64,000 nucleotides of DNA. Source: Patescibacteria group bacterium (GTDB taxonomy: Bacteria; Patescibacteriota; Patescibacteriia; Patescibacteriales; BS150m-G62). The first letter of the stretch is position 1; the number at the start of each line of letters is the position of its first letter. Both the position numbers and the translations under genes were made by a program. The stretch spans positions 330 to 64,329 of the forward strand of contig JADHVC010000002.1 in assembly GCA_016784175.1 (NCBI GenBank), in the 5' to 3' direction. The notes under the pieces are model-generated. The model saw only the letters and a program-made list of their open reading frames with translations, made no database searches and was not told where the DNA came from. This document shows, piece after piece, positions 1,296 to 61,838 of this stretch.

Positions 1296-2036
1296 ATGAC
1301 TATCCCTCACTACTATATTAAATTTATTGCATTCTTTGGTTGTCTATTTCTTCTCTCTATTTTGTTTTTTGTGTTTAATCGTGGTGCTAACGATGGTGTA
1401 AAGACCGTTCAGGTAAAAAATGAAGGTGCATTAACCGAAACTGCCCAAGAGAATAGTAAAAATGTTACAGTTGAGGTAAAAAATGAAGGTGCATTAACCG
1501 AAACTGCCCAAGAGAATAGTAATAATATTGTTGGAAAAAGTGAGCAAGATGTAAGCCCAGTGGTTGTAGATGAAGTTGTTACCATAAATATTGAAACTAT
1601 TAAATCAGAAGAAAATGACTATTTAACTGACGCTGAAAAAGAGGGTCTTGGTATTCGAAAAACAGTAATAGTAAAAGCATTAGAGCGTGATACTAATGGT
1701 CGTGTTTTGTCTTTTAAGATAGAAAAAGACCCTTTATTTATTGACTCCGATGAAGATGGTCTGTCAGACTCAGAAGAGGAAAATGAATTTGGTACCGATA
1801 AAAATAACTATGACACAGATGGTGATAATGCCTCCGACGGTGACGAAGTTATGAATGGCACTAATCCTCTTGTAAACGAAAATCTTCTAGACTCTGATAA
1901 CGACGGTCTTACTGATGCGCAAGAAATGGGTAAATACAAAACTGATAAAAATAATGCCGATACAGACGGAGACGGTTACTCCGATGGCGATGAAATAAAT
2001 GCTGGGTTTAATCCATTGGGCGAGGGTAAGTTATAA
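1296..2036 (+). CDS. Membrane-anchored protein with thrombospondin-type-3-like Ca-binding repeats
   Basis: N-terminal hydrophobic helix (FIAFFGCLFLLSILFFVF). 21-aa tandem duplication. Four DxDxDGxxDxxE units (DSDEDGLSDSEE, DTDGDNASDGDE, DSDNDGLTDAQE, DTDGDGYSDGDE). The stop codon TAA at 2034-2036 is the first 3 nt of a repeat-element fragment. Confidence 0.6.
   Translation: MTIPHYYIKFIAFFGCLFLLSILFFVFNRGANDGVKTVQVKNEGALTETAQENSKNVTVEVKNEGALTETAQENSNNIVGKSEQDVSPVVVDEVVTINIETIKSEENDYLTDAEKEGLGIRKTVIVKALERDTNGRVLSFKIEKDPLFIDSDEDGLSDSEEENEFGTDKNNYDTDGDNASDGDEVMNGTNPLVNENLLDSDNDGLTDAQEMGKYKTDKNNADTDGDGYSDGDEINAGFNPLGEGKL
1411..1522 (+). repeat. Intragenic tandem repeat, period 63 nt, two units
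   Basis: The 49-nt string AGGTAAAAAATGAAGGTGCATTAACCGAAACTGCCCAAGAGAATAGTAA occurs identically at 1411-1459 and 1474-1522. It encodes VKNEGALTETAQENS twice. Confidence 0.9.
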
Positions 2037-2070
2037 GCGAAAAAGTGATGCAGATATAGTGAGCAGTTAC
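2034..2070 (+). mobile_element. Fragment (right end, 37 nt) of the 189-bp foldback element
   Basis: TAAGCGAAAAAGTGATGCAGATATAGTGAGCAGTTAC matches the last 37 nt of the full copies (for example 39262-39298). Confidence 0.85.
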
Positions 2071-2120
2071 TTATAAAAGAAATAAAGATAAATTGTTTTA
2101 AAATAAATTAATAATAAAAA

Positions 2121-2155
2121 AATCACTAACAATTTCGTTGGTGATTTTATTTTTG
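2121..2155 (+). terminator. Rho-independent terminator candidate
   Basis: AATCACTAAC / GTTGGTGATT 10-bp stem (one G:U) with loop AATTTC, followed by TTATTTTTG. It lies downstream of 1296..2036. Confidence 0.6.
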
Positions 2156-2250
2156 TAACTTTACTTAAGCGTTAATTTTTTGATATTTTAGTAGTTCCCT
2201 AGGAGCTATTTTTTTAGTATAATATATGTATAATCTATTCAAATATATTA

Positions 2251-3621: not shown

Positions 3622-3630
3622 AATAAAGGC

Positions 3631-4056
3631 ATGAGAAAGTTTACCGTACCACAATTTATCGATATAGAAGACAAAATACTTGGTCCATTAACAGTGAGGC
3701 AATTTTTGATAATGTTAGTGTGTTTTATGGTTCTCTTTATCTACTATAAGGTTTTTGATTTTACTTTATTTGTTGTGGCTGGATTACCAACATTCGGAGT
3801 CTTTGGAGTTCTGGCTTTTACTAAAGTTAACGGAAGACCATTCCATTATTTTATACTTAATTTAATTCAGACCGCAAAAAAACCAGGGCTTAGGGTGTGG
3901 AGCAATGCCGACATAGATAATTTATCCGAAATCGAAGAATTTGTAAAAGAAGAGCTAGACTACATTCCAATATCTGCTACGCCAGTAAGTTCTTCAAGAT
4001 TAACCGAATTGTCACTGGTGGTAGATACTACTGGAACATATAAAGGTAAAGCATAA
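3631..4056 (+). CDS. PrgI-family / VirB3-like small membrane protein
   Basis: The N-terminus FTVPQFIDIEDKILGPLTVRQFLIMLVCFMVLFIY followed by a second hydrophobic helix is the typical PrgI-family pattern. The gene sits immediately upstream of the VirB4-like genes. Confidence 0.65.
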   Translation: MRKFTVPQFIDIEDKILGPLTVRQFLIMLVCFMVLFIYYKVFDFTLFVVAGLPTFGVFGVLAFTKVNGRPFHYFILNLIQTAKKPGLRVWSNADIDNLSEIEEFVKEELDYIPISATPVSSSRLTELSLVVDTTGTYKGKA

Positions 4057-4074
4057 ATATAAAATTATTACGAC

Positions 4075-4764: not shown

Positions 4765-4785
4765 TATATTTCATGAATAAAAAAA

Positions 4786-6723: not shown

Positions 6724-6756
6724 TATAATAAATATAAAAGTGAAGTTTTGTGTTTT

Positions 6757-9456: not shown

Positions 9457-9479
9457 ATAATTACTCACTATATCTATAT
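9457..9479. mobile_element. Solo terminus relic (23 nt) of the foldback element
   Basis: ATAATTACTCACTATATCTATAT compared with the element terminus GTAACTACTCACTATATCTACAT (copy 59921-). About 20 of 23 positions match. Confidence 0.55.
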
Positions 9480-9528: not shown

Positions 9529-10644
9529 ATGGAGAATTTAATAAAAAATATTGAAATATTACGCGAGCAAGTTATTAAAACTCATACTGCTCTAGATATC
9601 GAAGGTAAAAAATCGGAGCTAAGAGATTTAAAGCGCCTCATTAGTGTGCCTGATTTTTGGAATAATCGTGAAAAGGCAGTAGAAGTTTCTAGAAAAGCAG
9701 AAGACTTAGAAAAGGTAACGGGTAAATGGGACAAGCTTCGACAGGACATAAGGTCGCTAGAAGAATTCGTTGCTTATGCCAGTAAAGAAGGGGATGATTC
9801 TGTTTATGACGAGTCGAATGCGATGTATGAAGAATATAAGCAGCTTTATGATGAGTTGGAATTCGGAGTACTTTTTTCAGGTAAATATGATGAAAGTAAC
9901 GCGGTCATTTCTGTGCATGCTGGTTCTGGTGGAGTTGATGCACAAGATTTCGCTCAAATTTTAGAAAGAATGTATTTGCGATATTGCGAGAAAAAGAAAT
10001 TCAAAGTGATGATGGTGGATAGGGTTGATGGGGGAGAGGCAGGCATTAAAAGCAGTTCTTTTGAAGTAAGGGGTAGTTTTGCTTATGGTAATTTGAAAGG
10101 TGAGGCAGGTATTCACAGGTTAGTGCGAATTTCACCATTTGACGCGGAGTCCATGCGACATACTTCATTTGCTTCGGTTGATGTTATTCCTGTTATCGAA
10201 GAAACACAAGATATTATTATTAATGAAAGTGACCTACGGATCGATACCTATAAGTCAGGCGGACCTGGTGGGCAAAGTGTGAACACGACCGACTCTGCTA
10301 TAAGGATTGTACATATTCCAACAAATACAACAGTTACTTGCCAGACAGAACGATCACAACATCAAAATAAGGAAACCGCTTTTAAAATTTTAAAATCAAA
10401 ACTTTATAAATTAGAGCAAGATAAACGAGAGGCCGAGGAAGCAAAGTTACGCGGAGAAGTTGAAAAAGCCGATTGGGGTAAGCAGATTCGGTCATATGTT
10501 ATGCAACCTTATAAGATGGTTAAAGACCATAGAACAAATTTTGAAACACAAGACATTGACGGTGTGCTAGAAGGAGAGATCGAAGGATTTATTGTAGCTT
10601 ATCTTAAGGGAGAGATCACAAGCGAAAAAATAATGCAGACATAG
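9529..10644 (+). CDS. prfB: Peptide chain release factor 2
   Basis: SPF tripeptide (RISPFD), GGQ motif (SGGPGGQSVNTTDSA) and RSQHQNKETA. One uninterrupted ORF with no internal TGA or frameshift site. Confidence 0.92.
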   Translation: MENLIKNIEILREQVIKTHTALDIEGKKSELRDLKRLISVPDFWNNREKAVEVSRKAEDLEKVTGKWDKLRQDIRSLEEFVAYASKEGDDSVYDESNAMYEEYKQLYDELEFGVLFSGKYDESNAVISVHAGSGGVDAQDFAQILERMYLRYCEKKKFKVMMVDRVDGGEAGIKSSSFEVRGSFAYGNLKGEAGIHRLVRISPFDAESMRHTSFASVDVIPVIEETQDIIINESDLRIDTYKSGGPGGQSVNTTDSAIRIVHIPTNTTVTCQTERSQHQNKETAFKILKSKLYKLEQDKREAEEAKLRGEVEKADWGKQIRSYVMQPYKMVKDHRTNFETQDIDGVLEGEIEGFIVAYLKGEITSEKIMQT

Positions 10645-10655
10645 TGAGCAGTTAC
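10621..10655. mobile_element. Fragment (terminal 35 nt) of the foldback element overlapping the prfB 3' end
   Basis: AGCGAAAAAATAATGCAGACATAGTGAGCAGTTAC matches element ends (compare 61804-61838, GCGCTCAAAAATAATACAGACATAGTGAGCAGTTAC). The prfB stop codon TAG (10642-10644) lies inside it. Confidence 0.75.
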
Positions 10656-10699
10656 AACAGAAAATTATTGATGAGGCTGAAAAGATAAACAAATAAAAA

Positions 10700-10748
10700 A
10701 GTCGCTATTGCATAAAAGCTTTATAGCGACTATTATTTTTTTTAAAAA
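10700..10748. terminator. Bidirectional rho-independent terminator
   Basis: AGTCGCTAT (10700-10708) pairs with ATAGCGACT (10723-10731). An A-run lies upstream and ATTATTTTTTTT downstream. It sits between convergent prfB and 10759..11721(-). Confidence 0.7.
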
Positions 10749-10758
10749 AGAACTGTTA

Positions 10759-11721
10759 TTACTTTCTTTTCCATACGTTTTTTGTTTCTATTTCTAATTC
10801 GACGATTTCGCCAGCTGAATCAGTGGATACGAACCAAATATTCCACCAACTACTAATGAATTCTAGGTCACGTCGTTTTACAAAGTTTTGGATATCGGCA
10901 AGGGTGACCGGAAATTTATTTTCATCATGACTTCCTTTACCAAAGAAAAACCGAGTATCATTGTCAATAAATTTACCCCATTTTTCAGGCAATTGTTGTT
11001 TTAATAATTCTACTCCTTTTTCTAGTTTTTCTTTGGTTTTAGCACTTTCAAGAACTAATTTTCGCATAATCATATTACTTTGTTCTTTGTTAAGCGTAGT
11101 GCTTCGCCCGCTATCCAAGATGGTTGAAATCAGAACGGTCGAAAAAGCCAAACTTTTTTTATCTTGTGCAATTTTGGCTAAATGAGGAGTCCGAGAGAAT
11201 TGTCGAATTAACCAATCGGGATAGGCATAGCGTTCCTGAAAAATGTTGTTTATTTCTTGAAACTTATTGCTGAATAGCTGATCTCCGAACCATTCATTTT
11301 GGTTTGTAGCACTAACAAGTTCTGATAATTCGATTTCTTTGTTTATTTGCCACGCACTATTCGTATACGTTGGGTCTTCAAGCAATTTACTGATTCTTGT
11401 TAATTCTGCTACATGTCCCCAACCCAAACGAAAGGCGATAATTAAGCCTTCAGATTGCACATAGATTGAGGCTTTTTCAATGTCTTGACTAAATTTAAAT
11501 GCTAAGCCAAGGCTTATTATTCCAACCACATTTTGCATGGCTTTGCGTAAATTTTCTTCGTGTACGATATCATAATACTTTTTCGCAAACCCTATTGTTA
11601 AGTCTACCCCTTCTTGTTCTGCCTTTTTAAAAAAAGGGTCCTTGAGCTGACCAGATTTTACTCCGTGCTCAAGGACTTGTGTTAAGAAGGGGCGGAGATC
11701 CTTTATAGTAATTCCGCCCAT
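10759..11721 (-). CDS. Hypothetical protein (320 aa), 4th gene of the J-domain operon
   Basis: ORF with AAGGAG 6 nt upstream of the ATG. Elevated GC (43 % in one sampled line). No recognisable motif. Confidence 0.55.
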   Translation of the reverse strand: MGGITIKDLRPFLTQVLEHGVKSGQLKDPFFKKAEQEGVDLTIGFAKKYYDIVHEENLRKAMQNVVGIISLGLAFKFSQDIEKASIYVQSEGLIIAFRLGWGHVAELTRISKLLEDPTYTNSAWQINKEIELSELVSATNQNEWFGDQLFSNKFQEINNIFQERYAYPDWLIRQFSRTPHLAKIAQDKKSLAFSTVLISTILDSGRSTTLNKEQSNMIMRKLVLESAKTKEKLEKGVELLKQQLPEKWGKFIDNDTRFFFGKGSHDENKFPVTLADIQNFVKRRDLEFISSWWNIWFVSTDSAGEIVELEIETKNVWKRK

Positions 11722-11748
11722 TTTAGTCTCCTTTGTTTTTTTTGCTGT

Positions 11749-12498
11749 TTATGGAGCTAGCGGTACAAACATATCTTCGTCGCAGATTGTCGACTGCTCT
11801 ACTCCTATCATCTTTTGTGCATGCTTGGTAAGCGCAAACACCATTCTCGATAACGACGCCTCGCTGATGCCGTTATTGTGTTTGACGAGGCTTTGAGCCA
11901 TCTTTGGAGCAACTTCACTTATAGCAAGAAAAAGTATTTCTATGCTTCCATGTTCCAACAAAGCACTCGCCATATCAATATCAATATTGGTAGATTCAGT
12001 ATGGGCGCATTCAGTTCCTGTATCATCATAAATATTAATCTCAATTGACTTTTTTAACTCTAGTGGTGTCCAACCAATAAAAGTGAATTTCAGAAAAGAT
12101 CTGGCTCCTTCATTAGCAAGAATAGCTTTTATTATTTCCATTTGTCTTTGTTTGTTATTGCAAGACAGAACGAAATGTGCCAGTGTATTGAGGGCATTTT
12201 CTTGAAGTCTTTCGGGACATTCCAAGAGCTTAGCTTCCCAGTTGACTGGCTCAGTCTCAAGTGCTTTTGCAATATCTATTGGTGATAAAAGATCAGTGAG
12301 AATTGACGCCGTTGTGAAATCGTGGGATCTTAAGATATTCGCTTGTTCTACGATATTAAGCGCTCTAACAATTGGCTCCGTTGCCCTATCGCCATGTTCG
12401 CTTGCGAATTTGATAATTAGTTGTTCTGCTGCTTTTCCTTGACCTTGGTTGGCCAGTTCTTTTATTTTGCTAATAACCAAGTCGGTATCTCTATTCAT
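11749..12498 (-). CDS. Hypothetical protein (249 aa), 3rd gene of the J-domain operon
   Basis: ORF with AAGGAG 6 nt upstream of the ATG, 3 nt after the upstream stop. One sampled line is 50 % GC. Looks predicted-helical and repeat-like; no motif recognised. Confidence 0.55.
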   Translation of the reverse strand: MNRDTDLVISKIKELANQGQGKAAEQLIIKFASEHGDRATEPIVRALNIVEQANILRSHDFTTASILTDLLSPIDIAKALETEPVNWEAKLLECPERLQENALNTLAHFVLSCNNKQRQMEIIKAILANEGARSFLKFTFIGWTPLELKKSIEINIYDDTGTECAHTESTNIDIDMASALLEHGSIEILFLAISEVAPKMAQSLVKHNNGISEASLSRMVFALTKHAQKMIGVEQSTICDEDMFVPLAP

Positions 12499-12501
12499 GT
12501 T

Positions 12502-12984
12502 CTACTCCTTGCCCATTTCTTCAAGTTGAATGTCGGCATAAACATCACCACTGCTGATGGTGCTTCCAGTAAGGACAAACTCATCCTGATTCGCAAAGAT
12601 AAAGTTAAGAATAAATGCGGTTTGAAGTGCGTCTTTGTAGGATTCTTCAAGCTCTTTTACTAAGCTAGCACATCTTGGATTTGCGTGAATTGTTTTTTTA
12701 ATGATCTTCCAATCTGGGAAAGCATTTAAATATATCCAAGATAGCCACTTTTCACGATCAACATATTTTACACTGCCAAATACGGCAATCGCCGCATAGG
12801 TTGGGAATTCTACGACAAGATGCGAAGATTCCTTGATTGTCTGAAAGATTACTTTACAGTATTCGGTTAGTCTTGTGGGGTTATCGGGATCATCCGACAT
12901 TTGAATCTCTTCTAAAAATGATTCAAAATTATCAGCGATTGTAGGGTGTAAGTGAATAGGGTGTAAGTGAATTTTGATGCTCAT
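12502..12984 (-). CDS. Hypothetical protein (160 aa), 2nd gene of the J-domain operon
   Basis: ORF with GGAGA 9 nt upstream of the ATG, 3 nt after the J-domain gene stop. The N-terminal IHLHPIHLHP comes from a 15-nt direct repeat. Confidence 0.5.
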   Translation of the reverse strand: MSIKIHLHPIHLHPTIADNFESFLEEIQMSDDPDNPTRLTEYCKVIFQTIKESSHLVVEFPTYAAIAVFGSVKYVDREKWLSWIYLNAFPDWKIIKKTIHANPRCASLVKELEESYKDALQTAFILNFIFANQDEFVLTGSTISSGDVYADIQLEEMGKE

Positions 12985-12987
12985 TCT

Positions 12988-13281
12988 TTAATTCTCCATT
13001 ACAGGTTTAAAAGTGTTAAGATACTCGAACCATATTGTCAGAGTTACCTTTGTTGGGTTATCAGTTACGCGGGCTGCTCTTTCTTTTTCGTACTCTCCTT
13101 TCTTCTGGGGGTTTGTTAGAGTTTTGTATGTATCTATGATTTTCTCAAGTTTTTTAACTGCTTCGGGATCATCGTTTCGATCTGGATGGTACTCCTTCAA
13201 TAAAGAGTGATAAGCCTGCTTGATTTCGGCAGGTGTTGCTTTATTTGTTAGTCCTAAAATAAAATATAGATCGTGTATCAT
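12988..13281 (-). CDS. Stand-alone J-domain protein (97 aa)
   Basis: DLYFILGLTNKATPAEIKQAYHSLLKEYHPDRNDDPEAVKKLEKIIDTYKTLTNPQKKGEYE is a canonical DnaJ J-domain with the HPD motif. There is no G/F or zinc-finger region. Confidence 0.85.
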   Translation of the reverse strand: MIHDLYFILGLTNKATPAEIKQAYHSLLKEYHPDRNDDPEAVKKLEKIIDTYKTLTNPQKKGEYEKERAARVTDNPTKVTLTIWFEYLNTFKPVMEN

Positions 13282-13383
13282 ATATTTTTTCCTTATTTAA
13301 TTGTGTAAAGAACAAAGGAGAAAAGTTATTCTCACTAACCTTATTTATAGAACTATATAAAAACTTTGTCAAGTTAAATGCAT

Positions 13384-13467
13384 GTAACTGCTCACTATGT
13401 CTGCATTATTTTTGAGCGCATATGGAATATGTAGTAATTTTTAGCAGAATTTAACTTAAAAAAAATT
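13384..13467 (+). mobile_element. Fragment (left ~84 nt) of the foldback element
   Basis: GTAACTGCTCACTATGTCTGCATTATTTTTGAGCGCATATGGAATATGTAGTAATTTTTAGCAGAATTTAACTTAAAAAA... then diverges from the consensus. Confidence 0.85.
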
Positions 13468-13475
13468 AACTTAGG

Positions 13476-13552: not shown

Positions 13553-16500
13553 ATGTCTTTTATCCATTTACATGTTCATTCGCATTATTCTCTTCTGGAT
13601 GGCTTGTCTAGGTTTAATGAATTGATCGAAATTGCACAGGCAGATGGAGCAAATGCTGTTGCTTTAACTGATCATGGTGTAATGTATGGCATAATCGAGT
13701 TTTATCAAGCTTGTAAAAAGGCGGGCATTAAACCTATTGTTGGTTTTGAGGCATATATGGCCAAGGGTTCAATGTTGGAAAAGGTGACCAAGCAAGATGA
13801 AAAGCGTAATTATCATATATTACTTTTGGCTCGGAACAATCAGGGCTATAAAAATTTAATCAAACTTACTTCTATTGCACATCTAGAGGGTTTTTATTAT
13901 AAGCCACGCATAGACTGGGAAACACTTCAAAAATATTCCGAAGGGCTAATTGCTTGTTCGGCTTGTTTGGGTGGAGAAATACCACAATTAATTTTATCTG
14001 ACAAATACGATAAAGCCAAAAAAAGAGCACAAGAACACGAAGAGCTTTTTGGAAAGGGTCACTATTACTTAGAAATTCAGCCTCACCCTACTATTCCAGA
14101 GCAAGATCAAGTAAATCAAAAAATAATTCAAATAGCTAGAGAGACTGGTATTCCATTGGTTGCTACAAACGACTTGCACTACTTAAAGCCTGACGATTAT
14201 GACGCTCAGGACGTTCTTTTGTGCTTGCAAACAAAAGCCAAGAAGAATGATGTTGGTAGGTTTAGTCTTCATGGAAAGGATTTTTACTACAAGAGTGAGC
14301 AGGAAATGCGAGAGGCTTTCCTAGATGTTCAAGAGGCCGTAGACAATACTCAAGTTATTGCAGATATGTGTGATGTTGAAATCGAATTAGGTAATATTCA
14401 GTTGCCTTCTTTCGAAGTGCCAGAGGGTTTTGATGACTTTACATACCTAGAAAAGATTTGTCATGACGGTTTATTGGTTAGATATGAAAAAGATTATAAT
14501 AATGTAGACGAAGAAGTGCGTACCAGATTAGACTTTGAGTTATCGGTTATTAAGAAAATGGGGTGGCCATCATATTTTTCTATCGTTGCTGATTTTGTAA
14601 TGTGGGCTAAGAATAGAGGGATCGCTGTTGGGCCTGGGCGTGGATCTGCTGCTGGGTCGCTAGTTTGCTATGTGATAGGTATCACAAACTTAGATCCGAT
14701 TAAATACGAACTCCTTTTTGAGCGTTTCTTGAATCCCGAGCGTGTATCTATGCCCGATATCGATATGGACTTTTCGGATAATCGAAGAGAAGAAGTTTTG
14801 CGGTATGTTGAGCAAAAATATGGTAAGGATCATGTAGCGCAAATTATTACATTTGGAACAATGGCGGCTCGAGTGGCTATTCGTGATGTTGGTCGTGTCC
14901 TAGATATTCCATTGGCTTTATGTGACAAGTTGGCTAAATTAGTTCCAATGTTTTCTACTTTAAGTGACGCGCTAGAAAATACAGCCGAATTTAAAGATCT
15001 TTATGACAAAGATCCTCAGGCCAAACAAATTGTTGACTTTTCTCTGCGACTAGAAGGTGTGGCAAGGCATGCATCCACTCACGCTTGTGGTGTTTTGATA
15101 ACAAAAAATCCTCTAACAGATTACACCCCGCTACAATTTGGTTCGCAAGAGGGGGGTGACGGGCAACGAGGTATTGTATCGCAATATTCACTTCATCCAG
15201 TAGAGGACTTGGGTCTGCTTAAAATGGATTTTTTAGGTTTAAAAAACCTTACAATAATTGAGTCTGCTATTCGAATTATTAAAGAATCCAATGGCGTTGA
15301 AATAGATATTGAAAAAATACCTCTTGATGACAAACTTGCATATAAATTATTCCAAGATGGAGAAACAACAGGTGTCTTTCAATTCGAGTCATCGGGAATG
15401 AAGCGCTACTTAAAAGACTTGAAACCAACCGAGCTGGAAGATATTATCGCTATGGTGGCCCTCTATCGTCCTGGACCAATGGAGTGGATTCCAGATTTTA
15501 TTGCCGGTAAACATGGCACAAGGACCATCCAATATCTACATCCTAAGCTAGAGCCAATTTTAAGAAATACTTATGGAGTAGCAATTTACCAAGAGCAAGT
15601 TATGCGTATGGCAAGAGACTTGGCTGGTTTTAGTATGGGTCAAGCAGACGTTTTGCGTAAGGCGATGGGTAAAAAGATTGTAAAGTTGTTGGCTGAACAA
15701 AAAGATAAGTTCTTGAACGGGTGTGAAGATAATAACATTGATAGGCGACTCGCTGAACAAATTTTTTCGTTTATTGAACCTTTCGCGGGTTACGGTTTCA
15801 ACAGAAGTCACGCAGCCTGTTACGCTATGATTGGCTATCAAACAGCCTACCTAAAGGCTCACTATCCGGCAGAATTTATGGCTGCTTTATTAACTGCCGA
15901 TCAGCAGCATATCGACAGAATATCGATAGAGATTGACGAATGCAAGGAGATGGGAATAGATGTATTGCAGCCTAATGTTAATAAATCTTTTGAGTCGTTT
16001 ACAGTTGTTAAAAATACAGAAACAGGTAAGAAAGAAATACGTTTTGGTTTAAGGGCGATAAAAAATGTTGGAACAAATATCTCTGAATTTATCATCAAAG
16101 AGAGGATAGAAAATGGAGAATTCTTGGATCTAAGCGACCTATTGGAGCGAGTTATTAATAGAGATATGAACAAGAAGTCTTTAGATAGTTTGATCAAATG
16201 CGGGGCAATGGATGATTTTGGTGATCGAGGAAAATTAATAGCGAACATGGATAATTTACTTGAGTTTAGTAAAGAAGTGGGTAAACTTAAAGCTAATAAT
16301 CAAAATAGTTTATTTGGTGATGTGACTGGTGTAAATAGTATAAATAAGGTTAGGCTGGATAAAACTGGTGTGGTAGAAAAGCAAGATAAGTTAAGATGGG
16401 AAAAGGAACTTCTTGGTCTGTATATTACCGAACATCCGTTTAACGAATATAGAAAATATCTAGAAGGTTTTTGTGTAAATTTGCTTGATTTGCAGGGCTG

Positions 16501-17103: not shown

Positions 17104-17292
17104 ATAACTGCTCACTATACCTGCATCACTTTTTCGCTTAGGATGGAATGTTGGGCAATTTTTTACGCACAATTTAACAAAAATTTTAAACTCGCTTCAC
17201 TCAAACATAAAATTTTTTAAGTTAAATTCTGCTAAAAATTACTACATATTCCATATGCGCTCAAAAATAATGCAGGTATAGTTAGCAGTTAC
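17104..17292 (-). mobile_element. Foldback MITE-like element, full copy (189 bp)
   Basis: ATAACTGCTCACTATACCTGCAT...ATGCAGGTATAGTTAGCAGTTAC. Reverse orientation relative to 39109-39298. No clear flanking direct repeat. Confidence 0.85.
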
Positions 17293-26204: not shown

Positions 26205-26270
26205 GTAACTGCCCGCTATATCTGCATTATTTTTGAGCGCATATGGAATATGTAGTAATTTTTAGCAGAT
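26205..26270 (+). mobile_element. Fragment (left ~66 nt) of the foldback element
   Basis: GTAACTGCCCGCTATATCTGCATTATTTTTGAGCGCATATGGAATATGTAGTAATTTTTAGCAGA. It is truncated 4 nt from the stop codon of 26274..27176(-). Confidence 0.85.
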
Positions 26271-26273
26271 TAT

Positions 26274-27176
26274 TTATTCGATGCCTAACTCTATTTTATA
26301 TTTTTTTATCCAATCTGGTAAGTTTATCTTTGGCGTCCAATTTAAAAGTTCGTGCGCTAAAGTATTGTTCGCTAATGTTTCGCGCGGTTCAATTCTAGCT
26401 GGTATGTGAATCGAGTCTCCACCTATCATCAAAGCTACTTCATTAACGCTATAATTCTTTCCTCGTCCAATATTAATCACTTCTCCTCTACCAACATTTT
26501 TACTTTTAGCGGCAAGTATATTGGCCTCTACTACATCGATAACGCTGGTAAAATCTCTTTTTTGTTCACCATCGCCAGTAATTGTTAGGGGTTGACCTTT
26601 TAGTCTTTGGTTTGCAAAAATTCCCATAACTAAACAATAAGCGCCTTCGAGCAACATACGTTGTCCATAAACATTAAAATAGCGTAAAGATACCGTTGGT
26701 AAATTATATAGGTCGCTAAATAAACGACAATAAAGTTCTCCTATATATTTTTGAAGTCCATATGGACTCATAGCCTTGGTTGGCATATTTTCATGCAGTG
26801 GCATTTCGACTTGATCTCCATATGCAGAAGACGATGCACTATATATTACTTTTTTTACTTTTGCATCACGAGCTGCTGTAAGAACGCTAAGAGTTCCATT
26901 TAAATTTATATCATTTGATGCAATGGGATCTTTAATGGAAGGCTCAACTCTTGCGAAAGCAGCAAGGTGAAAAACATAATCGACACCTTCAAATAAAGGT
27001 TTAATTTTAGCAAAATCACGCATATCTAATTTGTAAAATTCAGCTTCTTTGTTAATATTCTCCTCTAATCCTGTCGACAAATTATCAATAATAATTACTT
27101 CATTTCCTTGTTTAATTAATTCATCAGTTAAATTGGAGCCAATAAAACCTGCTCCTCCTGTAATAAGACATTTCAT
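26274..27176 (-). CDS. NAD-dependent sugar epimerase/dehydratase (extended SDR)
   Basis: Rossmann motif ITGGAGFIGSNL. Catalytic S (ASSSAYG). YxxxK (YGLQKYIGE). 300 aa. Confidence 0.85.
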   Translation of the reverse strand: MKCLITGGAGFIGSNLTDELIKQGNEVIIIDNLSTGLEENINKEAEFYKLDMRDFAKIKPLFEGVDYVFHLAAFARVEPSIKDPIASNDINLNGTLSVLTAARDAKVKKVIYSASSSAYGDQVEMPLHENMPTKAMSPYGLQKYIGELYCRLFSDLYNLPTVSLRYFNVYGQRMLLEGAYCLVMGIFANQRLKGQPLTITGDGEQKRDFTSVIDVVEANILAAKSKNVGRGEVINIGRGKNYSVNEVALMIGGDSIHIPARIEPRETLANNTLAHELLNWTPKINLPDWIKKYKIELGIE

Positions 27177-27207
27177 AAATTTAAATTTAATTATAAGTAA
27201 TATTAAG

Positions 27208-27396
27208 GTAACCGCTCACTGTGTCTGCATTATTTTTAAGCGCATATGGAATATGTAGTAATTTTTAGCAGAACTTAACTTAAAAAATTTTATGTTTGAG
27301 TGAAGCAAGTTTAAAATTTTTGTTAAATTGTGTGTAAAAAATTGCACAATATTCCATCCTAAGCGAAAAAGTGATGTAGATATAGTGAGCAGTTAG
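27208..27396 (+). mobile_element. Foldback MITE-like element, full copy (189 bp)
   Basis: GTAACCGCTCACTGTGTCTGCAT...ATGTAGATATAGTGAGCAGTTAG. No clear flanking direct repeat. Confidence 0.85.
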
Positions 27397-27412
27397 TGTT
27401 ATTTTTATATTA

Positions 27413-28510: not shown

Positions 28511-28565
28511 GTAATTTTAGATCTTATTATTTTAATATTTACTTTAATTATAGCACACAAACAAA

Positions 28566-39108: not shown

Positions 39109-39298
39109 GTAACTGCTCACTATACTTGCATTATTTTTGAGCGCATATGGAATATGTAGTAATTTTTAGCAGAATTTAACTTAAAGAATTTTATGTTTGA
39201 GTGAAGCGAGTTTAAAATTTTTGTTAAATTGTGCGTAAAAAAATTGCCCAATATTCAATCCTAAGCGAAAAAGTGATGCAAGTATAGTGAGCAGTTAC
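39109..39298 (+). mobile_element. Foldback MITE-like element, full copy (190 bp)
   Basis: GTAACTGCTCACTATACTTGCAT...ATGCAAGTATAGTGAGCAGTTAC. The first 23 nt at the two ends are perfectly complementary. Flanks are AAAATATT and AAAAGATT (7/8). Confidence 0.9.
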
Positions 39299-39319: not shown

Positions 39320-41539
39320 ATGATTCTATTAAATTATATGTCTAAAAATATCTATAAACTTATCTTAAAGGTGGGCGTGTATATGTCTCTTTTTTCTGTA
39401 TTTTTAGTTTATAGTGGTTTCTTGTTTCCCTATATTACTTCAAAGCAAATATATTTTAATATATTAATCGAATTTATAAGTATATTTTGGGTAGTATATT
39501 TATTGAAATATCCAAAAGAAAGACCAAAAATAACTTATGTTGGTTGGGGTTTAATAGCATATTTCTCTGTAGTTTTACTCACATCCTTCACGGGCGTAGA
39601 TTTTAATCTAAGCTTCTGGGGTGATATTGAGCGAATGCTTGGTTTTTTTCACATAGTTCACTTCTTAGTCCTCTATTTTATTATAATAACTGTGATGCGT
39701 GAATGGCAGGACTGGAAGATATTTTTACTTCTTTCTGTTATTTTAGCCCAGATAGTAAGTTTAAACGGTATTGTTGGCCAGGCTTATTCTACTATCGGCA
39801 ATACTGCTTATGTTGCTGGTTATATAATATTTAACATATTTTTTACTTTTATTCTTATTGCTCGCGAGCAAAATATAAGGTTGCGTTGGGCATATTTGGC
39901 ATTATTACCACTTTTAGTAAAGCAGTTTTTGCTCGCTAGTTCCGCTGGTGGGGCATTTGGATTGGGTTTTAGTTTTTTTGTTATGCTTTTTTTGTATGGC
40001 ATGTTTAGCTCTAATCAAAAAATAAAAAAATATACCTTCGCAGCCATAATTACCTTCTCCGTTCTAACAATAACTGCATTTTCTAATAAGTCGCTAATGA
40101 AAGATACTTCCTTGTTAAGCGACATGTCTTTTGAAAAAAATACCTTTAAAACAAGGCTTATTTCATGGAAGGCCGCTATGTACGATATGCCAAATCATTT
40201 TTTCTTAGGAACTGGATTTGGAAATTTTGCGGTAACTTTTGATAAATATTTTGATCCAATTTTTTATAACTATTCAAGAAGTGAAACATATTTTGACAGA
40301 GCACATAATAATATAATTGAAATTGCCTCAACTACTGGAATGCTAGGGCTAATGGCATATCTCTCAATCTTTTTAGCCGCCGGTATATATCTAATAAGAT
40401 ATTTTAATAGTGGCGTAATTAACATTTATGATTTTTGTTTTGTAAGTGCATTGTTGATAGCCTATTTCGTTCAAAACTTAGCTGTTTTTGATTCTTTAGT
40501 TACATTTATAGGTCTAATGATGACGCTTGGTTATGTGCATTGGATAACGCAAAATAGGGGAGTCGTCACTCAAGAAATTTACTCTGAGGAAAACAATGGA
40601 AAAGTAATAGTTACGAGAGACAATGAAATTTTTGCTTTAGTGGTAGTTGGTTTTGTATTTATTACAATTATTTATCAATACAATTATAAGCCAATAAGAA
40701 TGTTAAAAGGGACAATCGATGGGCAAATTGCATTTATTGAAGGGGATTATCCTAGAGCTAATAAGCACTATGCTCAAGCATTAAGTTATCACACTGGCTT
40801 AGACAGAGATTCAAAAGTTGCTTTTGTACGTGAGGTTGGTAGTCGGATTAGCAGCTTAATCTCATTACCAAAGGAAGAGCGTGATTCAATGGTTAATATG
40901 GCAATAAGATTGGCCGAGGAGAATGTAGCTTTAAATCCACTTGATAGTATGTTGCAATTACAATTGTCTCAAATATATAGAGTGGCTGCTGATTATTATA
41001 CAAATGATCATGCTCTTGCATTAGATCTATTTAATAAATCCAACGATGCTATTGATAGGTCTATCGAAAGCTCTCCAAGAAGAATTAGAATTTATTTTTC
41101 AAAAGCTCAAATTTTACTTTCGGCTGGCAAGACAGAGGATGCAATAGAAATTTTAAAATATGCCAGTACGTTAAATGAAGACTATTATGACACTTTTTGT
41201 CATCTTGGCGGTATTGCGCTTTCTCTAAATGACAAAGAAGAGGCTTATGGTGCATTTGATAAATGTTTAGCACTCAACGGGCAGGGAGTGCTAACTACTC
41301 CAAGCGTGGTTTTCGAATTAGTAAAACACTACAAGGAGATTGGAAATATGGATAATGTTATCAAATTGCTTATTAGGTTAGCCGAGCTTGATCCAAAAAA
41401 TACCAGCATTTTAATAGAGTTAGCTAAACAATATGCGTCTATTGGTGATGTTGAAAACGCAAAAAAAGCAACTTTTAAGGCTACTGAATTAAATCCAAAT
41501 TTGCGAACGCAGGCAATGGAGTTTATTGAAAACTTATAG
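39320..41539 (+). CDS. O-antigen ligase/polymerase-like (Wzy_C) polytopic membrane protein with C-terminal TPR domain
   Basis: At least 10 hydrophobic helices. Wzy_C-type signature RAHNNIIEIASTTGMLGLMAYLSIF. C-terminal TPR-like repeats (AIEILKYASTLNEDYYDTF..., DVENAKKATFKATELNP). Confidence 0.7.
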   Translation: MILLNYMSKNIYKLILKVGVYMSLFSVFLVYSGFLFPYITSKQIYFNILIEFISIFWVVYLLKYPKERPKITYVGWGLIAYFSVVLLTSFTGVDFNLSFWGDIERMLGFFHIVHFLVLYFIIITVMREWQDWKIFLLLSVILAQIVSLNGIVGQAYSTIGNTAYVAGYIIFNIFFTFILIAREQNIRLRWAYLALLPLLVKQFLLASSAGGAFGLGFSFFVMLFLYGMFSSNQKIKKYTFAAIITFSVLTITAFSNKSLMKDTSLLSDMSFEKNTFKTRLISWKAAMYDMPNHFFLGTGFGNFAVTFDKYFDPIFYNYSRSETYFDRAHNNIIEIASTTGMLGLMAYLSIFLAAGIYLIRYFNSGVINIYDFCFVSALLIAYFVQNLAVFDSLVTFIGLMMTLGYVHWITQNRGVVTQEIYSEENNGKVIVTRDNEIFALVVVGFVFITIIYQYNYKPIRMLKGTIDGQIAFIEGDYPRANKHYAQALSYHTGLDRDSKVAFVREVGSRISSLISLPKEERDSMVNMAIRLAEENVALNPLDSMLQLQLSQIYRVAADYYTNDHALALDLFNKSNDAIDRSIESSPRRIRIYFSKAQILLSAGKTEDAIEILKYASTLNEDYYDTFCHLGGIALSLNDKEEAYGAFDKCLALNGQGVLTTPSVVFELVKHYKEIGNMDNVIKLLIRLAELDPKNTSILIELAKQYASIGDVENAKKATFKATELNPNLRTQAMEFIENL

Positions 41540-41551: not shown

Positions 41552-41602
41552 AATATTCCATCCTAAGCAAAAAAAGTGATGTAGGTATAAGTGAGCACTT
41601 AC
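41552..41602 (+). mobile_element. Fragment (right ~51 nt) of the foldback element
   Basis: AATATTCCATCCTAAGCAAAAAAAGTGATGTAGGTATAAGTGAGCACTTAC. Confidence 0.8.
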
Positions 41603-45222: not shown

Positions 45223-45410
45223 GTAACTACTCACTATGTCTGCATTATTTTTGAGCGCATATGGAATAAGTAGTAATTTTTAGCAGAATTTAACTTAAAA
45301 AATTTTTGTTTGAGTGAAGCGAGTTTAAAATTTTTATTAAATTGTGCGTAAAAAATTGCCCAATATTCCATCCTAAGCGAAAAAGTGATGTAGATATAGT
45401 GAGTAGTTAC
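45223..45410 (+). mobile_element. Foldback MITE-like element, full copy (188 bp)
   Basis: GTAACTACTCACTATGTCTGCAT...ATGTAGATATAGTGAGTAGTTAC. No clear flanking direct repeat. Confidence 0.85.
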
Positions 45411-49289: not shown

Positions 49290-49490
49290 ATAACTACTCA
49301 CTATGTCTGCATTATTTTTAAGCGCATATGGAATATGTAGTAATTATTAGCACAATTTAACTTAAAAAAAATATGTTTGAGTGAAGCGAGTTTAAAATTT
49401 TTGTTTAAAATTTTTGTTAAATTGTGCGTAAAAAATTGCCCAATATTCCATCCTAAGCGAAAAAGTGATGTAGATATAGTAAGTAGTTAC
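49290..49490 (+). mobile_element. Foldback MITE-like element, full copy (201 bp, internal 13-nt duplication)
   Basis: ATAACTACTCACTATGTCTGCAT...ATAGTAAGTAGTTAC. Contains an extra TTTAAAATTTTTG unit. AAAAAAAAC flanks both sides (49281-89 and 49491-99; low complexity). Confidence 0.85.
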
Positions 49491-52773: not shown

Positions 52774-52859
52774 TTTAACTGTAATCTTGATGAATATTTG
52801 CTAAAAATTAATTTGTATGACCTTAGCATATAAGAAAAAAAATGTCAAGGGTTTTTTAG

Positions 52860-53048
52860 GTAGATACTCACTATACCTCCATTATTTTTGAGCGCATATG
52901 GAATATGTAGTAATTTTTAGCACAATTTAACCTAAAAAATTTTATGTTTGAGTAAAGCGAGTTTAAAATTTTTGTTAAATTGTGCGTAAAAAATTGCCCA
53001 ATATTCCATCCTAAGCGAAAAAGTGATTCAGGCATAGTGAGTATCTAC
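52860..53048 (+). mobile_element. Foldback MITE-like element, full copy (189 bp) with co-varying termini
   Basis: GTAGATACTCACTAT...ATAGTGAGTATCTAC. Both termini carry the same variant (GATAC instead of ACTGC). Flanks are TTTTTTAG and CTTTTTAG (7/8). Confidence 0.9.
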
Positions 53049-53052
53049 CTTT

Positions 53053-55354: not shown

Positions 55355-56743
55355 ATGATAAATTATTTAATCATAAAAATTAAAAATAGTCAAGAGCTAG
55401 CCTTGTTTTCTGTTACTGCTTTGTTGCTCTTCTTGCTCATGTTCTTTTTGGGTACTACAACGCTCGCAATTAAATTCATCCTAATTATTATTATTGGCTT
55501 GATTCCAGTGTTCTTTAAGAAGCCAATTATTTTTTTATATTTTTTGTTTCTTGTTACGCCAAGTTTACGCGTTCTTACTCGAGATGAACTAATATTCCAA
55601 AATTATGGAATCAATTTTAACGTATTAATTCACTTGTCTCTGCTATTTTACGGATCTTTGATGGCTTGGCGGTCAAGAAGTCAGTTACTAGTTTATGTTA
55701 AAAAGTATCAATTTATTAGTTATTTTGCTGTTTTTTTATTTTTATCTGGTGCAAGTATTTTTTATTCGCTAGATAGGCCAAGTACATTAGATCAGTTTGT
55801 TAGGTTATGTAGTTCGTCTTTTGGAATCTTTTTCTTTGCCTTACTCGCAATAAACACAAGAAAAGATTTTTATAATCTTATTTATTGCATAGTGCTAGGT
55901 TTAATTGTTCCTAGTATAGTTGGGTACTACGAATTTTTTGCGGGTACGGGTTGGTATGACCCGTCGATGAGAACTTATAGGATCGACAGTACTTTTACAC
56001 ACCCAGTTATTTTTTCTGGATATCTATTGTTGGCTATGCCAATTTTATATGCTTTAGTGGAGGACAAGATTAAAAATAGAGTAAAAGTTGGTTTGTTCGC
56101 GTTCTTAGGTAATAACCTATTCTTTGTGATTGCAAGCTTGACACGTGGTATTTGGAATGCAGGGGCTGCAATGTTACTTGTTTTTGGTGGCATAAAGAGC
56201 AGGAAGACACTTGTGGCTGGAATTTTAATCTTTGTTCTGACTTTTATGTTTATCGAACCTCTCAAGCAAAGAGTTTATGATACATTTAGACCTAGTCCAG
56301 ATAGTTCTTTTCAAACAAGACTAGATATTATAAAGACAACCTTTCCTGCTTTTTGGAGTGCACCATTTTTGGGTTATGGTTTTGGTGCATTTGAAGTTAT
56401 CCACTTGCGTTACAATGAAGATGCACGTTTTTGGCCGTCGCTACAAGCACATAACGATTACCTAAGAATTTTAATTGAGCTTGGTGTAATAGGTGCAATT
56501 CTATATCTATCTATTTTTATTTCTTTGTTATTGCTTATTAGAAGGTTATATTTAGGTGCTGATAGTAAAGAACTTCAAAATTATTATTTCAGTCTAGTTT
56601 TAATTTGGATAGCGGCTGGTACAATTTCCTTAAGTGATAATTTTTTAAGAATAGTAGAGTTCCAACAGATCGCCTGGGCTTACACTGGAGCGGTCTTAGC
56701 CTTTGGGTTAGTAAAGAAAGAAAGTACGCACAAAAAAAGATAG
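55355..56743 (+). CDS. O-antigen ligase/polymerase family (Wzy_C) membrane protein
   Basis: At least 10 hydrophobic helices. LQAHNDYLRILIELGVIGAILYLSIF is the Wzy_C signature. Confidence 0.75.
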   Translation: MINYLIIKIKNSQELALFSVTALLLFLLMFFLGTTTLAIKFILIIIIGLIPVFFKKPIIFLYFLFLVTPSLRVLTRDELIFQNYGINFNVLIHLSLLFYGSLMAWRSRSQLLVYVKKYQFISYFAVFLFLSGASIFYSLDRPSTLDQFVRLCSSSFGIFFFALLAINTRKDFYNLIYCIVLGLIVPSIVGYYEFFAGTGWYDPSMRTYRIDSTFTHPVIFSGYLLLAMPILYALVEDKIKNRVKVGLFAFLGNNLFFVIASLTRGIWNAGAAMLLVFGGIKSRKTLVAGILIFVLTFMFIEPLKQRVYDTFRPSPDSSFQTRLDIIKTTFPAFWSAPFLGYGFGAFEVIHLRYNEDARFWPSLQAHNDYLRILIELGVIGAILYLSIFISLLLLIRRLYLGADSKELQNYYFSLVLIWIAAGTISLSDNFLRIVEFQQIAWAYTGAVLAFGLVKKESTHKKR

Positions 56744-56932
56744 GTAACTACTCACTATACCTGCATCACCTTTTCGCTTAGGATGTAATATTGGGCAATT
56801 TTTTACGCACAAGTTAACAAAAATTTTAAATTCGCTTCACTCAAACATAAAATTTTTTAAGTTATATTCTGCTAAAAATTACTACATATTCCATATGCGC
56901 TCAAAAATAATGCAGGTATAGTGAGTAGTTAC
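56744..56932 (-). mobile_element. Foldback MITE-like element, full copy (189 bp) with perfect 8-bp flanking direct repeat
   Basis: GTAACTACTCACTATACCTGCAT...ATGCAGGTATAGTGAGTAGTTAC. AAAGATAG occurs at 56736-56743 and again at 56933-56940. The left copy contains the TAG stop of 55355..56743. Confidence 0.92.
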
Positions 56933-59896: not shown

Positions 59897-59920
59897 GTTA
59901 CTGACCATAAGTTAACCTTA

Positions 59921-60109
59921 GTAACTACTCACTATATCTACATCACTTTTTTACTTAGGATGAAATATTGGGCAATTTTTTACACACAATTTAACAAAAA
60001 TTTTAAACTTGCTTCACTCAAACATAAAATTTTTTAAGTTAAATTCTGCTAAAAATTACTACATATTCCATATGCGCTTAAAAATAATGCAGATATAGTG
60101 AGCACTTAC
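59921..60109 (-). mobile_element. Foldback MITE-like element, full copy (189 bp)
   Basis: GTAACTACTCACTATATCTACAT...ATGCAGATATAGTGAGCACTTAC. Flanks are TAACCTTA and TAATCATA (6/8). Confidence 0.85.
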
Positions 60110-60157
60110 TAATCATATTCTTGCAAAAAGTATGATATTTTGTTATTTTGTAGAAGT

Positions 60158-60382
60158 ATGAAAATAGAAGAAAAAATTAAACAAACATTAGACAATATTA
60201 GACCGGCGTTGCAGGCAGACGGAGGAGATCTTCGTTTTGTAAAGTTTAGTGATGGAGTTTTGGAAATTGAGCTTGTTGGTGCCTGTGCTGGCTGTCCAAT
60301 GGCACAACTTACCTTAAAGGATGGTATTGAAGTTGAAGTAATGAAAGCGGTGCCAGAAGTCAAAGAAGTTGTGGCAGTTTAA
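60158..60382 (+). CDS. NifU C-terminal-domain (Nfu-type) Fe-S cluster carrier
   Basis: IRPALQADGGDLRFVKFSDGVLEIELVGACAGCPMAQLTLKDGIE with the CxxC motif. The ATG at 60158 (MKIEEKI) is preferred over 60140. Confidence 0.8.
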   Translation: MKIEEKIKQTLDNIRPALQADGGDLRFVKFSDGVLEIELVGACAGCPMAQLTLKDGIEVEVMKAVPEVKEVVAV

Positions 60383-60411
60383 GCGTCTTCTAAGAGTTTG
60401 TATAAAAAAAT

Positions 60412-61629
60412 ATGTCAATATATTTTGATCATGCAGCAACAACACCTGTTAGTGAAAGTGTGCTTAATAAAATGCTGCCTTTTTTTAGTGCAAAATTTGG
60501 CAATGCGTCTTCGGTGCATAATTTTGGGCACGAAGCATTATTGGCTGTTGATGAGGCTAGGGGGACAATTAAGAACTTTTTTAATTGTGAGGTTGATGAG
60601 ATAGTTTTTACTTCTGGTGCTACCGAAGCTAATAATCTTTGTTTGAGTGGGATAATAAAGAGCGCCAAAAGTAGGGAAATAGAGGTGCCAAAAATTATAA
60701 TATCAGACATTGAACATCCCTCTGTAATAGAAACTTGTAAAGAGTTGGAAGGTCAAGGGGTTACACTAGAATACCTCAAAGTCAATAAGGATGGGCTAGT
60801 AAGCGTTGAAGACTTAGTTGCAAAAATCGACGAAAATACTGTTTTGGTCAGTATTATGTATGTAAATAATGAGATAGGTTCAATTCAACCTATTAGGGAG
60901 TTAGGAAAAGCTATAAAAAAAATTAACGAAAATAACGACAAGGCTTGGCGACAGGCAAAAGTAGACAAAAGAGGGACACGACCAAACAAAATTGTATTCC
61001 ATACGGACGCTACTCAAGCTATACGGTACTTAAATTGCGATATGGACTGGAACTATATTGATGCTTTAACTTTTTCTGGGCATAAAATATATGGACCAAA
61101 AGGAATCGGAGCTTTAATTTGCAAAGCCAATGTTGAAATTGAACCTATAATTTTTGGAGGCGGTCAAGAAGGTGGTAAGCGATCAGGTACGCTAAATGTG
61201 CCTGGTATTGTTGGTTTAGGTAAATCGATCGACGATATTAAGAAATTTAGCCAGCCAATGGATTTAAAGAAAATCGAAGATCTTAGACAATCGTTGGTTG
61301 ACAAAATAAGTTCCGAATTTTTTGATATTGTATTAAACGGTAATTATGAAAAAGCTTTGCCAAATATTATAAATTTTAGAATTAAAAATATTAATGCCGA
61401 AAGTTTAATGATTGCTCTCGACATGAAGGGTATTGGTATATCTACCGGATCAGCTTGTTCTCTTAGTAAACTTACTTATTCTCATGTACTTAACGCTATA
61501 GGATTAAACGCAGATGAGGCTAGGTCCTCGATTAGAGTTAGTTTAGGAAATGCTAGTACGGAGGATGAGGTTACACAGTTCGCGGCAATATTAAAAGAAG
61601 TAATATTGCAAATTAAAAATTTAAAATAG
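60412..61629 (+). CDS. Cysteine desulfurase (class V aminotransferase, IscS/NifS type)
   Basis: IYFDHAATTPV, HTDATQA, FSGHKIYGPKGIGAL (PLP lysine) and STGSACS (catalytic Cys). Confidence 0.9.
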   Translation: MSIYFDHAATTPVSESVLNKMLPFFSAKFGNASSVHNFGHEALLAVDEARGTIKNFFNCEVDEIVFTSGATEANNLCLSGIIKSAKSREIEVPKIIISDIEHPSVIETCKELEGQGVTLEYLKVNKDGLVSVEDLVAKIDENTVLVSIMYVNNEIGSIQPIRELGKAIKKINENNDKAWRQAKVDKRGTRPNKIVFHTDATQAIRYLNCDMDWNYIDALTFSGHKIYGPKGIGALICKANVEIEPIIFGGGQEGGKRSGTLNVPGIVGLGKSIDDIKKFSQPMDLKKIEDLRQSLVDKISSEFFDIVLNGNYEKALPNIINFRIKNINAESLMIALDMKGIGISTGSACSLSKLTYSHVLNAIGLNADEARSSIRVSLGNASTEDEVTQFAAILKEVILQIKNLK

Positions 61630-61649
61630 TAGTCTCTTTCTCTCTCTCT

Positions 61650-61838
61650 GTAAATACTCACTATATCTGCATCACTTTTTCGCTTAGGATGGAATATTGG
61701 GCAATTTTTTACGCAAAATTTAACAAAAATTTTAAACTCGCTTCACTTAAACATAAAATTTTTTAAGTTAAATTCTGCTAAAAATTACTACATATTCCAT
61801 GTGCGCTCAAAAATAATACAGACATAGTGAGCAGTTAC
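61650..61838 (-). mobile_element. Foldback MITE-like element, full copy (189 bp)
   Basis: GTAAATACTCACTATATCTGCAT...ATACAGACATAGTGAGCAGTTAC. Flanks are CTCTCTCT and CACTTTCT (6/8). Confidence 0.85.

Follow-up and report, generated by a model that had tools for sequence, protein, structure and literature searches.

The window analysed here, a 64-kb stretch of DNA (bases 45,709-109,708 of the 112,948-bp ENA contig ERZ24794645 NODE_1131), derives from a Patescibacteria bacterium related to Falkowbacteria and carries a family of 189-bp foldback elements. These elements are miniature inverted-repeat transposable elements (MITEs), because they are short, non-coding and bounded by inverted ends, occur in many similar copies, are flanked by duplications of fixed length and are missing from orthologous sites of a sister species. 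We put at roughly 80% the probability that they bear the ends of IS66-family insertion sequences (IS), namely of the ISBst12 group with a single open reading frame (ORF), and have been mobilised by the DDE transposase of that group.

Copies of the element and their target sites

A preliminary description, made from the sequence alone, had listed nine full copies and six fragments of one consensus, with copies about 90% or more identical and about 3% of the window occupied, and all of this was borne out (Table 1). The pattern of the end repeat (25 nt, at most three mismatches) matched 12 times in the window, compared to 0 matches expected in shuffled sequences, and BLASTN and nhmmer searches of the window with the earlier consensus as the query recovered the same nine full copies and the fragments. 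Multiple alignment gave a 189-bp consensus, nearly the same as the earlier one, to which the full copies are 88.6-97.3% identical. The pairwise identities between copies, 87-97%, indicate a recent amplification of the family. Both orientations are present, and copies and fragments sum to about 2.0 kb, or 3.1% of the window. In addition, the core-pattern scan of metagenome contigs revealed one extra copy on the GenBank contig JACKQG010153379.1 (locus L003), 13 nt from a tRNA-Gln(CTG) gene. Nine full copies and six fragments in 64 kb, plus one copy on another contig, agree with the many dispersed similar copies expected of a MITE.

The ends of the element are near-perfect inverted repeats of 23-30 bp, as in MITEs, and read GTAAC...GTTAC (GTAACTRCTCACTAT... 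/ GTAACTRCTCACTATRYCTGCAT...). Moreover, alignment of the element to its own reverse complement gives about 70% identity across its full length. The whole element is thus an imperfect palindrome, predicted to fold into one long hairpin (-84.5 kcal/mol, z = -13.9), compared to -61.8 kcal/mol for RNA of the opposite strand, a gap of about 23 kcal/mol. No ORF is conserved between copies, in line with the earlier statement that none is credible, and both the size of 189 bp and the lack of coding capacity are those of a MITE. Public annotation calls a 68-aa ORF inside two copies (L014 19534-19740; L002 17444-17650), which is probably spurious since other copies have no such call. Near the hairpin tip of copy 49290-49490, a 13-nt internal tandem duplication, GTTTAAAATTTTT, is found at 49380-49405.

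The flanking octamers at the exact ends were compared for ten copies, namely the nine full copies of the window and that on JACKQG010153379.1. They agree at 8/8 positions for copy 56744, at 7/8 for copies 39109, 49290 and 52860, and at 6/8 for copies 59921, 61650 and the copy of locus L003. As a match of at least 6/8 has a chance of 0.016, estimated from the intergenic DNA of the window itself, the occurrence of such a duplication at seven of ten copies corresponds to a binomial P of 3e-11. Duplications of this kind are expected of a MITE, and their length of 8 bp is that of the IS66 family.

Two sister species share the gene order of the window, with DnaE 79% identical: species A (GCA_964569045.1 plus JGI contigs) and species B (NODE_1825, from the same sample). 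Species B retains two sites without the element. Its DUF4012-purE spacer has the same terminator, AACACTCTCA...GAGTGTTTTT, with a single T-tract, compared to the window, where the element lies within the T-tract with GTTTTTTTT on each side. Similarly, the spacer between the 202-aa and Wzy genes of species B has one ACACTATCTTT beside a conserved terminator, whose window counterpart shows CTATCTTT on each side of copy 56744; automatic alignment of this site is ambiguous. Altogether, the 8-bp duplications and the empty orthologous sites support the earlier suspicion of a mobile, non-autonomous element.

Ends of the IS66 type and the putative mobilising transposase

Members of the IS66 family are reported to have inverted ends of 20-30 bp that begin with GTAA(GCG), and to be flanked by 8-bp direct repeats (PMC11946415). 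ISDge4 of Deinococcus geothermalis, a single-ORF member of the ISBst12 group whose transposition was observed experimentally, has the ends GTAACTGCTCAGCA / GTGACTACTCAGCA and an 8-bp repeat (PMC12898284). In the window, the two end variants are GTAACTGCTCACTA / GTAACTACTCACTA, and eight of ten left ends as well as eight of ten right ends start with GTAA, as do IS66 ends. The window end GTAACTGCTCA agrees with that of ISDge4 at 11/11 terminal bases. We also identified a 1,635-bp single-ORF element at 14107-15741 of the Geobacillus kaustophilus plasmid pHTA426, the protein of which matches Pfam DDE_Tnp_IS66 at 1.9e-64. It has the ends GTAACTATTCAGCCC / GTATCTATTCAGCCC and a target duplication GACGAGTT of 8/8, and its end GTAACTATTCA agrees with the window end GTAACTACTCA at 10/11 terminal bases. 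The window family, ISDge4 and the pHTA426 element thus have the end motif GTAACT-R-Y-TCA in common, combined with an 8-bp duplication. The elements of the window do not encode a DDE_Tnp_IS66 transposase, as expected for non-autonomous derivatives, and are therefore classified as IS66-type MITEs rather than as IS66 members proper.

The preliminary description had not recognised the consensus as a named repeat, and indeed searches of Rfam, the plasmid set, the phage set and the GTDB species representatives returned nothing that resembles it. Its proviso that the consensus might coincide with a catalogued IS end holds at the family level, as the terminal 11-14 nt are those of IS66-family ends, but not for the 189-bp element itself.

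We propose that the repeats are 189-bp non-coding deletion derivatives of an insertion sequence that would have retained the ends recognised by its transposase. A DDE transposase of the ISBst12 group, encoded elsewhere in the genome or once present there, would bind the GTAACTRCTCAC... ends and insert the element into A/T-rich targets via staggered cuts, giving rise to duplications of 8 bp, at times 9 bp. Copies would survive where they are harmless, directly past stop codons and beside terminators, and might later decay by deletion, down to single arms.

Several observations weigh against this assignment. Neither the window nor the 85 kb of the source contig that were examined (27.8-112.9 kb) yielded a transposase with matching ends, and no transposase (as the preliminary description had stated for the window) or integrase domain at all was detected in the window or in the explored contig; we therefore infer the identity and the location of the mobilising partner. 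The likeness to IS66-family ends is confined to the terminal 11-14 nt, and three of the ten copies have no recognisable duplication. Furthermore, the terminal 28 nt vary at 8% per site and the interior at 2.5% (Fisher P = 9e-8 by cells and 0.004 by columns), contrary to MITEs in general, whose transposase-binding ends are usually the best-conserved part.

Scans of public collections with the end pattern and the 25-nt core pattern yielded no parent element. The core pattern had no match in the GTDB species representatives or in viral contigs, and only the copy on JACKQG010153379.1 in metagenome contigs; the end pattern had a single match, at chance level, in a Paramuribaculum metagenome-assembled genome. 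BLASTN of the consensus gave only short AT-rich chance matches against plasmids and nothing against phages.

Mirrored ends and alternative explanations

Substitutions seen in a single copy are as frequent in the ends as in the interior, as expected from neutral decay after insertion, and the excess variation of the ends therefore consists of variants shared among copies. These shared variants are mirrored in both arms, at positions 7 (G/A), 17 (T/C), 18 (copy 39109) and 4-5 (AC to GA, copy 52860). Five stem pairs are changed on both sides, all within the terminal stem, compared to 0-1 in slid controls, with 0 at five of the six offsets. None of 500 shuffles attained as many doubly changed cells as were observed. 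Mismatches that are fixed in other parts of the stem have never been repaired, which rules out a general homogenisation of the arms. Candidate explanations for the mirrored ends are templated arm-to-arm copying as in quasi-palindromes, selection for end pairing in a foldback intermediate, and adaptation of both ends to variant transposases.

It is possible, though rather unlikely, that the foldback itself is what is propagated, via a single-stranded hairpin intermediate or arm-to-arm correction, and relatedly that gene blocks of this small genome are shuffled by recombination, with the copies as boundaries. The former is suggested by the gathering of shared, mirrored variants in the terminal 28 nt next to a nearly invariant interior, the latter by an atc-like operon and an epimerase-kinase block, both bracketed by element ends. 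If true, a hairpin intermediate or arm correction would be a new clue to the poorly understood transposition of IS66/ISBst12 elements. MITEs of the IS66/ISBst12 type are little documented, and the transposition mechanism of the family is not well understood; the mirrored end changes provide natural variants for testing it. Together with the association of copies with gene rearrangements, the mirrored evolution of the ends merits follow-up.

If the likeness of GTAACTRYTCA to IS66 ends were convergent, the repeats might be MITEs of another or undescribed transposon family that makes 8-bp duplications. We regard this as doubtful. It would fit with the missing parent transposase in the 85 kb of source contig, the shortness of the similarity (11-14 nt) and the ends of the sister families, which begin with ATA instead of GTA. 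However, a match of 10-11 of 11 bases in fixed register to two independent single-ORF IS66 elements is very unlikely by chance, and the equal length of the duplications adds further weight to an IS66 origin. Duplications of 8 bp are also made by ISL3, IS256, IS6, IS1 and IS1595, the ends of which are quite different. Appreciably less probable still is a structured RNA or a DNA-level hairpin (terminator, stabiliser or insulator) kept by selection at operon boundaries, with mobility being secondary. The hairpin is very stable, one strand is by far the better RNA fold, the interior is well conserved, the consensus stem has seven G-U-type mismatches on one strand versus two on the other, and the arms of the terminal stem co-vary beyond the slid controls. 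Nevertheless, the asymmetry of 7 versus 2 is a single inherited state and not significant (P ~0.09), and changes between copies produce about ten G-U and six A-C pairs. Orientation relative to transcription shows no bias towards the stable strand, which is antisense in four of five tandem gene pairs; selection at the RNA level is thus unsupported. No internal helix shows a compensatory change. Rfam gave no hit at gathering thresholds for the whole window, and a relaxed search with one copy returned chance hairpin matches only, the best being a plant miRNA hairpin (25.6 bits versus 139.7 required). Moreover, orthologous sites of the sister species are free of the element and have retained ordinary terminators, while duplications and decaying fragments point to insertion followed by neutral loss.

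The spacing of the copies, every 1.7-4.1 kb over 39-62 kb, together with their imperfect palindromes and GTAAC...GTTAC ends, is reminiscent of integron-like recombination sites (attC or VCR type) between gene cassettes, and copies bracket several genes that were gained or have moved compared with the sister species. Against such sites, which we consider highly improbable, site-specific recombination makes no 8-bp duplications, copies are found in either orientation, the window contains no integrase, and the right end, CAGTTAC, departs from the attC core GTTRRRY. The intervening genes are core genes, the order of which is conserved in sisters lacking these copies. An assembly artefact, for instance repeat-induced chimeric joins, was envisaged in the preliminary description and has a negligible chance of being the explanation. 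It is true that shorter, short-read contigs of other samples terminate inside copies. Nevertheless, the same copies, with their private substitutions and flanks, recur across at least five independent assemblies (ERZ24794645, ERZ24794647, ERZ24794644, Logan ERR13319542 and GenBank JACKQG010153379.1). Each copy is distinct, and the gene order across copies agrees with that of the sister species.

Genomic setting and comparison with known elements

Full copies of the MITE occupy four of seven convergent gaps and five of 32 tandem gaps, and none of the seven divergent gaps; with fragments counted, six of the seven convergent gaps are marked. This placement fits a choice of A/T-rich targets combined with the elimination of promoter-disrupting insertions. 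In tandem gaps, the element end lies 21-86 nt from the next start codon, and therefore transcripts must either read through the hairpin or start beyond it; the hairpin might have an effect on such read-through transcripts. Within the element, only weak 9/12 AT-rich promoter matches were found, and promoter-like sites are no commoner in the region than in shuffled sequences. The preliminary description had placed copies at most operon boundaries, which stands for 39-62 kb but not elsewhere: the 18 kb upstream of the window hold one end fragment, and the 3 kb downstream neither a copy nor a fragment. This upstream fragment (consensus 1-31), about 15 kb from the window, overlaps the 3' end of a 219-aa gene (L023 2498-2528). 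No tRNA genes are present in the window. On contig JACKQG010153379.1, an ORF on the strand opposite to the tRNA-Gln(CTG) gene beside the extra copy, a putative recombinase by the look of its sequence, overlaps that tRNA gene (L003 858-1131, 1101-1397).

In four of the five longer fragments, the truncated side abuts the 3' end of a gene, and the fragments look like products of deletion decay halted at the nearest functional sequence. The 3' ends of three genes (9529-10644, 1296-2036 and 55355-56743) stem from the element or its duplication. For instance, the release factor has 371 residues, compared to 363 in both sisters, and its last eight residues and the stop codon come from the element. 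Within ORF 1296-2036, which encodes TSP3 repeats, a tandem 63-bp (21-codon) repeat of 94% identity is located at 1404-1529. One copy is inserted in the T-tract of a terminator, and three or four others lie within 50 nt of a terminator. Specific targeting of terminators is only partly supported, as such proximity would also be expected from A/T-rich targets and tolerance at gene 3' ends.

Table 1. Copies and fragments of the MITE in the window, and copies of the related family in species B
Feature	Position	Strand	Context and flanks
Right-arm fragment (consensus 153-189)	2034-2070	+	100% identity over 37 nt; its TAA is the stop of ORF 1296-2036
Probable remnant of a lone end, terminal repeat ATAATTACTCACTATATCTATAT	9457-9479	+	19/23 positions as end repeat; weakest fragment
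Terminal fragment	10620-10655	+	Encodes the last eight codons (TSEKIMQT) and stop of release-factor gene 9529-10644; terminus towards atc-like block
Left half-copy (consensus 1-87)	13384-13470	+	Consensus 1-80 at 100% identity; terminus towards atc-like block
Full copy	17104-17292	-	Between convergent dnaE and 2901-aa gene, beside bidirectional terminator; no recognisable duplication
Left-arm fragment (consensus 1-66)	26205-26270	+	Truncated 3 nt from stop of epimerase gene 26274-27176
Full copy	27208-27396	+	Between epimerase and histidine-kinase genes (both - strand); no recognisable duplication
Full copy	39109-39298	+	Flanking octamers AAAATATT / AAAAGATT, 7/8
Right-arm fragment (consensus 141-189)	41552-41602	+	12 nt past stop of gene 39320-41539
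Full copy	45223-45410	+	Between convergent genes; no recognisable duplication
Full copy with 13-nt internal duplication	49290-49490	+	In T-tract of DUF4012-gene terminator; 9-bp duplication AAAAAAAAC, 9/9
Full copy	52860-53048	+	Octamers TTTTTTAG / CTTTTTAG, 7/8; mirrored end change GTAGATAC...GTATCTAC
Full copy	56744-56932	-	Perfect 8-bp duplication CTATCTTT (element orientation) = AAAGATAG (+ strand), including the TAG stop of Wzy_C gene 55355-56743
Full copy	59921-60109	-	Between glycosyltransferase gene and nifU; octamers 6/8
Full copy	61650-61838	-	Between convergent nifS-like and T2SSE genes; octamers 6/8
Species B copies	L017 3364-3553 and 12262-12455; L013 8164-8359; L016 3174-3360		

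The DnaE of the window is identical to GenBank MBL7057829.1, a protein of a Patescibacteria group bacterium, and about 64% identical to that of Falkowbacteria, and the gene content is typical of the group, with PrgI/TraC/VirB4-like proteins, ComF, giant surface proteins and a glycosyltransferase/Wzy cluster. Species B has a family of its own, of about 194 bp, with the ends ATAGCTGCTCAC / ATACGTGCTCAC (left end ATAGCTGCTCACACAACA...) and at least four copies in about 43 kb, at which contigs break. Three copies, those whose flanks were read, have the perfect 8-bp duplications ACTTTAAA, CTTAATTA and TGAAGTTT. Species A has one diverged foldback copy directly past dnaE (L010 13530-13745), the arms of which align with both families. 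It has the spacer and the orientation of window copy 17104-17292, and may be either an ancient copy common to both or the product of a separate insertion. The sister-family ends begin with ATA, not GTA. The family of species B is absent from the window, and the window family from the species B loci. As the two do not cross-match, the lineage carries elements with the end core TGCTCAC that have been amplified separately in each species. The amplified family of the window and the sister families together imply a source of transposase in the lineage.

Several differences in gene order coincide with copies. The release-factor gene and dnaE are adjacent in both sisters, 5 and 124 bp apart, compared to the window, where a 2.7-kb block on the - strand (10656-13383) splits them. 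This block encodes a J-domain protein, AtcA, AtcB and a 320-aa DUF6178-like protein, resembles the atcJABC operon and is flanked by two element ends whose termini face it. The epimerase gene of the window (26274-27176) encodes a protein 54-56% identical to the sister epimerases. In the sisters this gene lies between a 442-aa gene and a glycosyltransferase gene; in the window it is elsewhere, between an element fragment and a full copy and next to an extra HAMP/HATPase histidine-kinase gene. The two genes (26205-28565) separate the giant surface-protein and HTH_17 genes, which are adjacent in the sisters. In addition, an extra radical-SAM gene (321 and 327 aa) separates the GT4 and DUF1972 glycosyltransferase genes of both sisters; it is missing from the window, where copy 52860-53048 is located at this place (52774-53052 versus L016 5597-6887), and species B has a copy of its own MITE in the same spacer. 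An origin of the bracketed blocks as composite transposons seems doubtful, given that no duplication surrounds the blocks and that the element ends face towards the atc-like block. The copies may have caused the changes in gene order, for example through recombination or aberrant transposition, or both may simply occur at the same permissive sites.

Upstream of the window (contig 37.7-39.7 kb; L023 9840-11830), a direct repeat of about 200 bp, which duplicates the 3' end of the preceding 2426-aa gene, lies on either side of a UbiA prenyltransferase gene. The same gene forms contigs of 1.8-1.9 kb in three other assemblies (L024-L026), one of which, L024, looks circular since it starts with the sequence of its end. 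A homologue search returned no sister orthologues, with a next-best match of 42% identity, and the gene seems to be absent from the closest sister species.

The genomes of Patescibacteria (the Candidate Phyla Radiation) are small and streamlined, with a size of about 1 Mb. About 3% of 64 kb in MITEs, together with co-occurring sister species that have their own families, indicates recent transposon activity in a reduced genome. The copies rewrite gene 3' ends, coincide with differences in gene order between species and are a practical cause of fragmented short-read assemblies in this lineage.

Full-text literature searches retrieved neither a description of MITEs in Patescibacteria nor a paper that connects ISBst12 with MITEs. 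The family is a new one of the IS66/ISBst12 type, in a lineage without described MITEs, although the kind of element is well known. The ISBst12-group insertion sequences ISDge4 and that of pHTA426 share with it the GTAACT-R-Y-TCA ends, the 8-bp duplications and inverted ends of about 20-30 bp. They differ from it in that the element is only 189 bp long, lacks a transposase and has no similarity beyond the first 11-14 nt; the hosts of these known elements are Deinococcus and Bacillota, compared to Patescibacteria here. The attC sites and Vibrio VCR repeats are likewise imperfect palindromes of similar size that recur between genes, but attC sites are associated with an IntI integrase, share one fixed orientation and a GTTRRRY core, and lack target duplications. 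None of this applies to the present family, which has no integrase in the window, lies in both orientations and is flanked by 8-bp duplications. Parallels are also seen in the classical MITEs, such as Correia of Neisseria, ERIC/IRU of enterobacteria, RUP of Streptococcus pneumoniae and RPE of Rickettsia. Like the present family, these are short non-coding elements with terminal inverted repeats, present in many dispersed copies that mostly lie between genes, at gene ends; they also form hairpins in transcripts, alter gene termini (RPE) and break short-read assemblies. The target duplications of classical MITEs are TA or otherwise short, and their parents belong to different IS families, for example IS630, whereas the element described here is distinguished by 8-bp duplications, ends of the IS66 type and a palindrome that extends over nearly its whole length.

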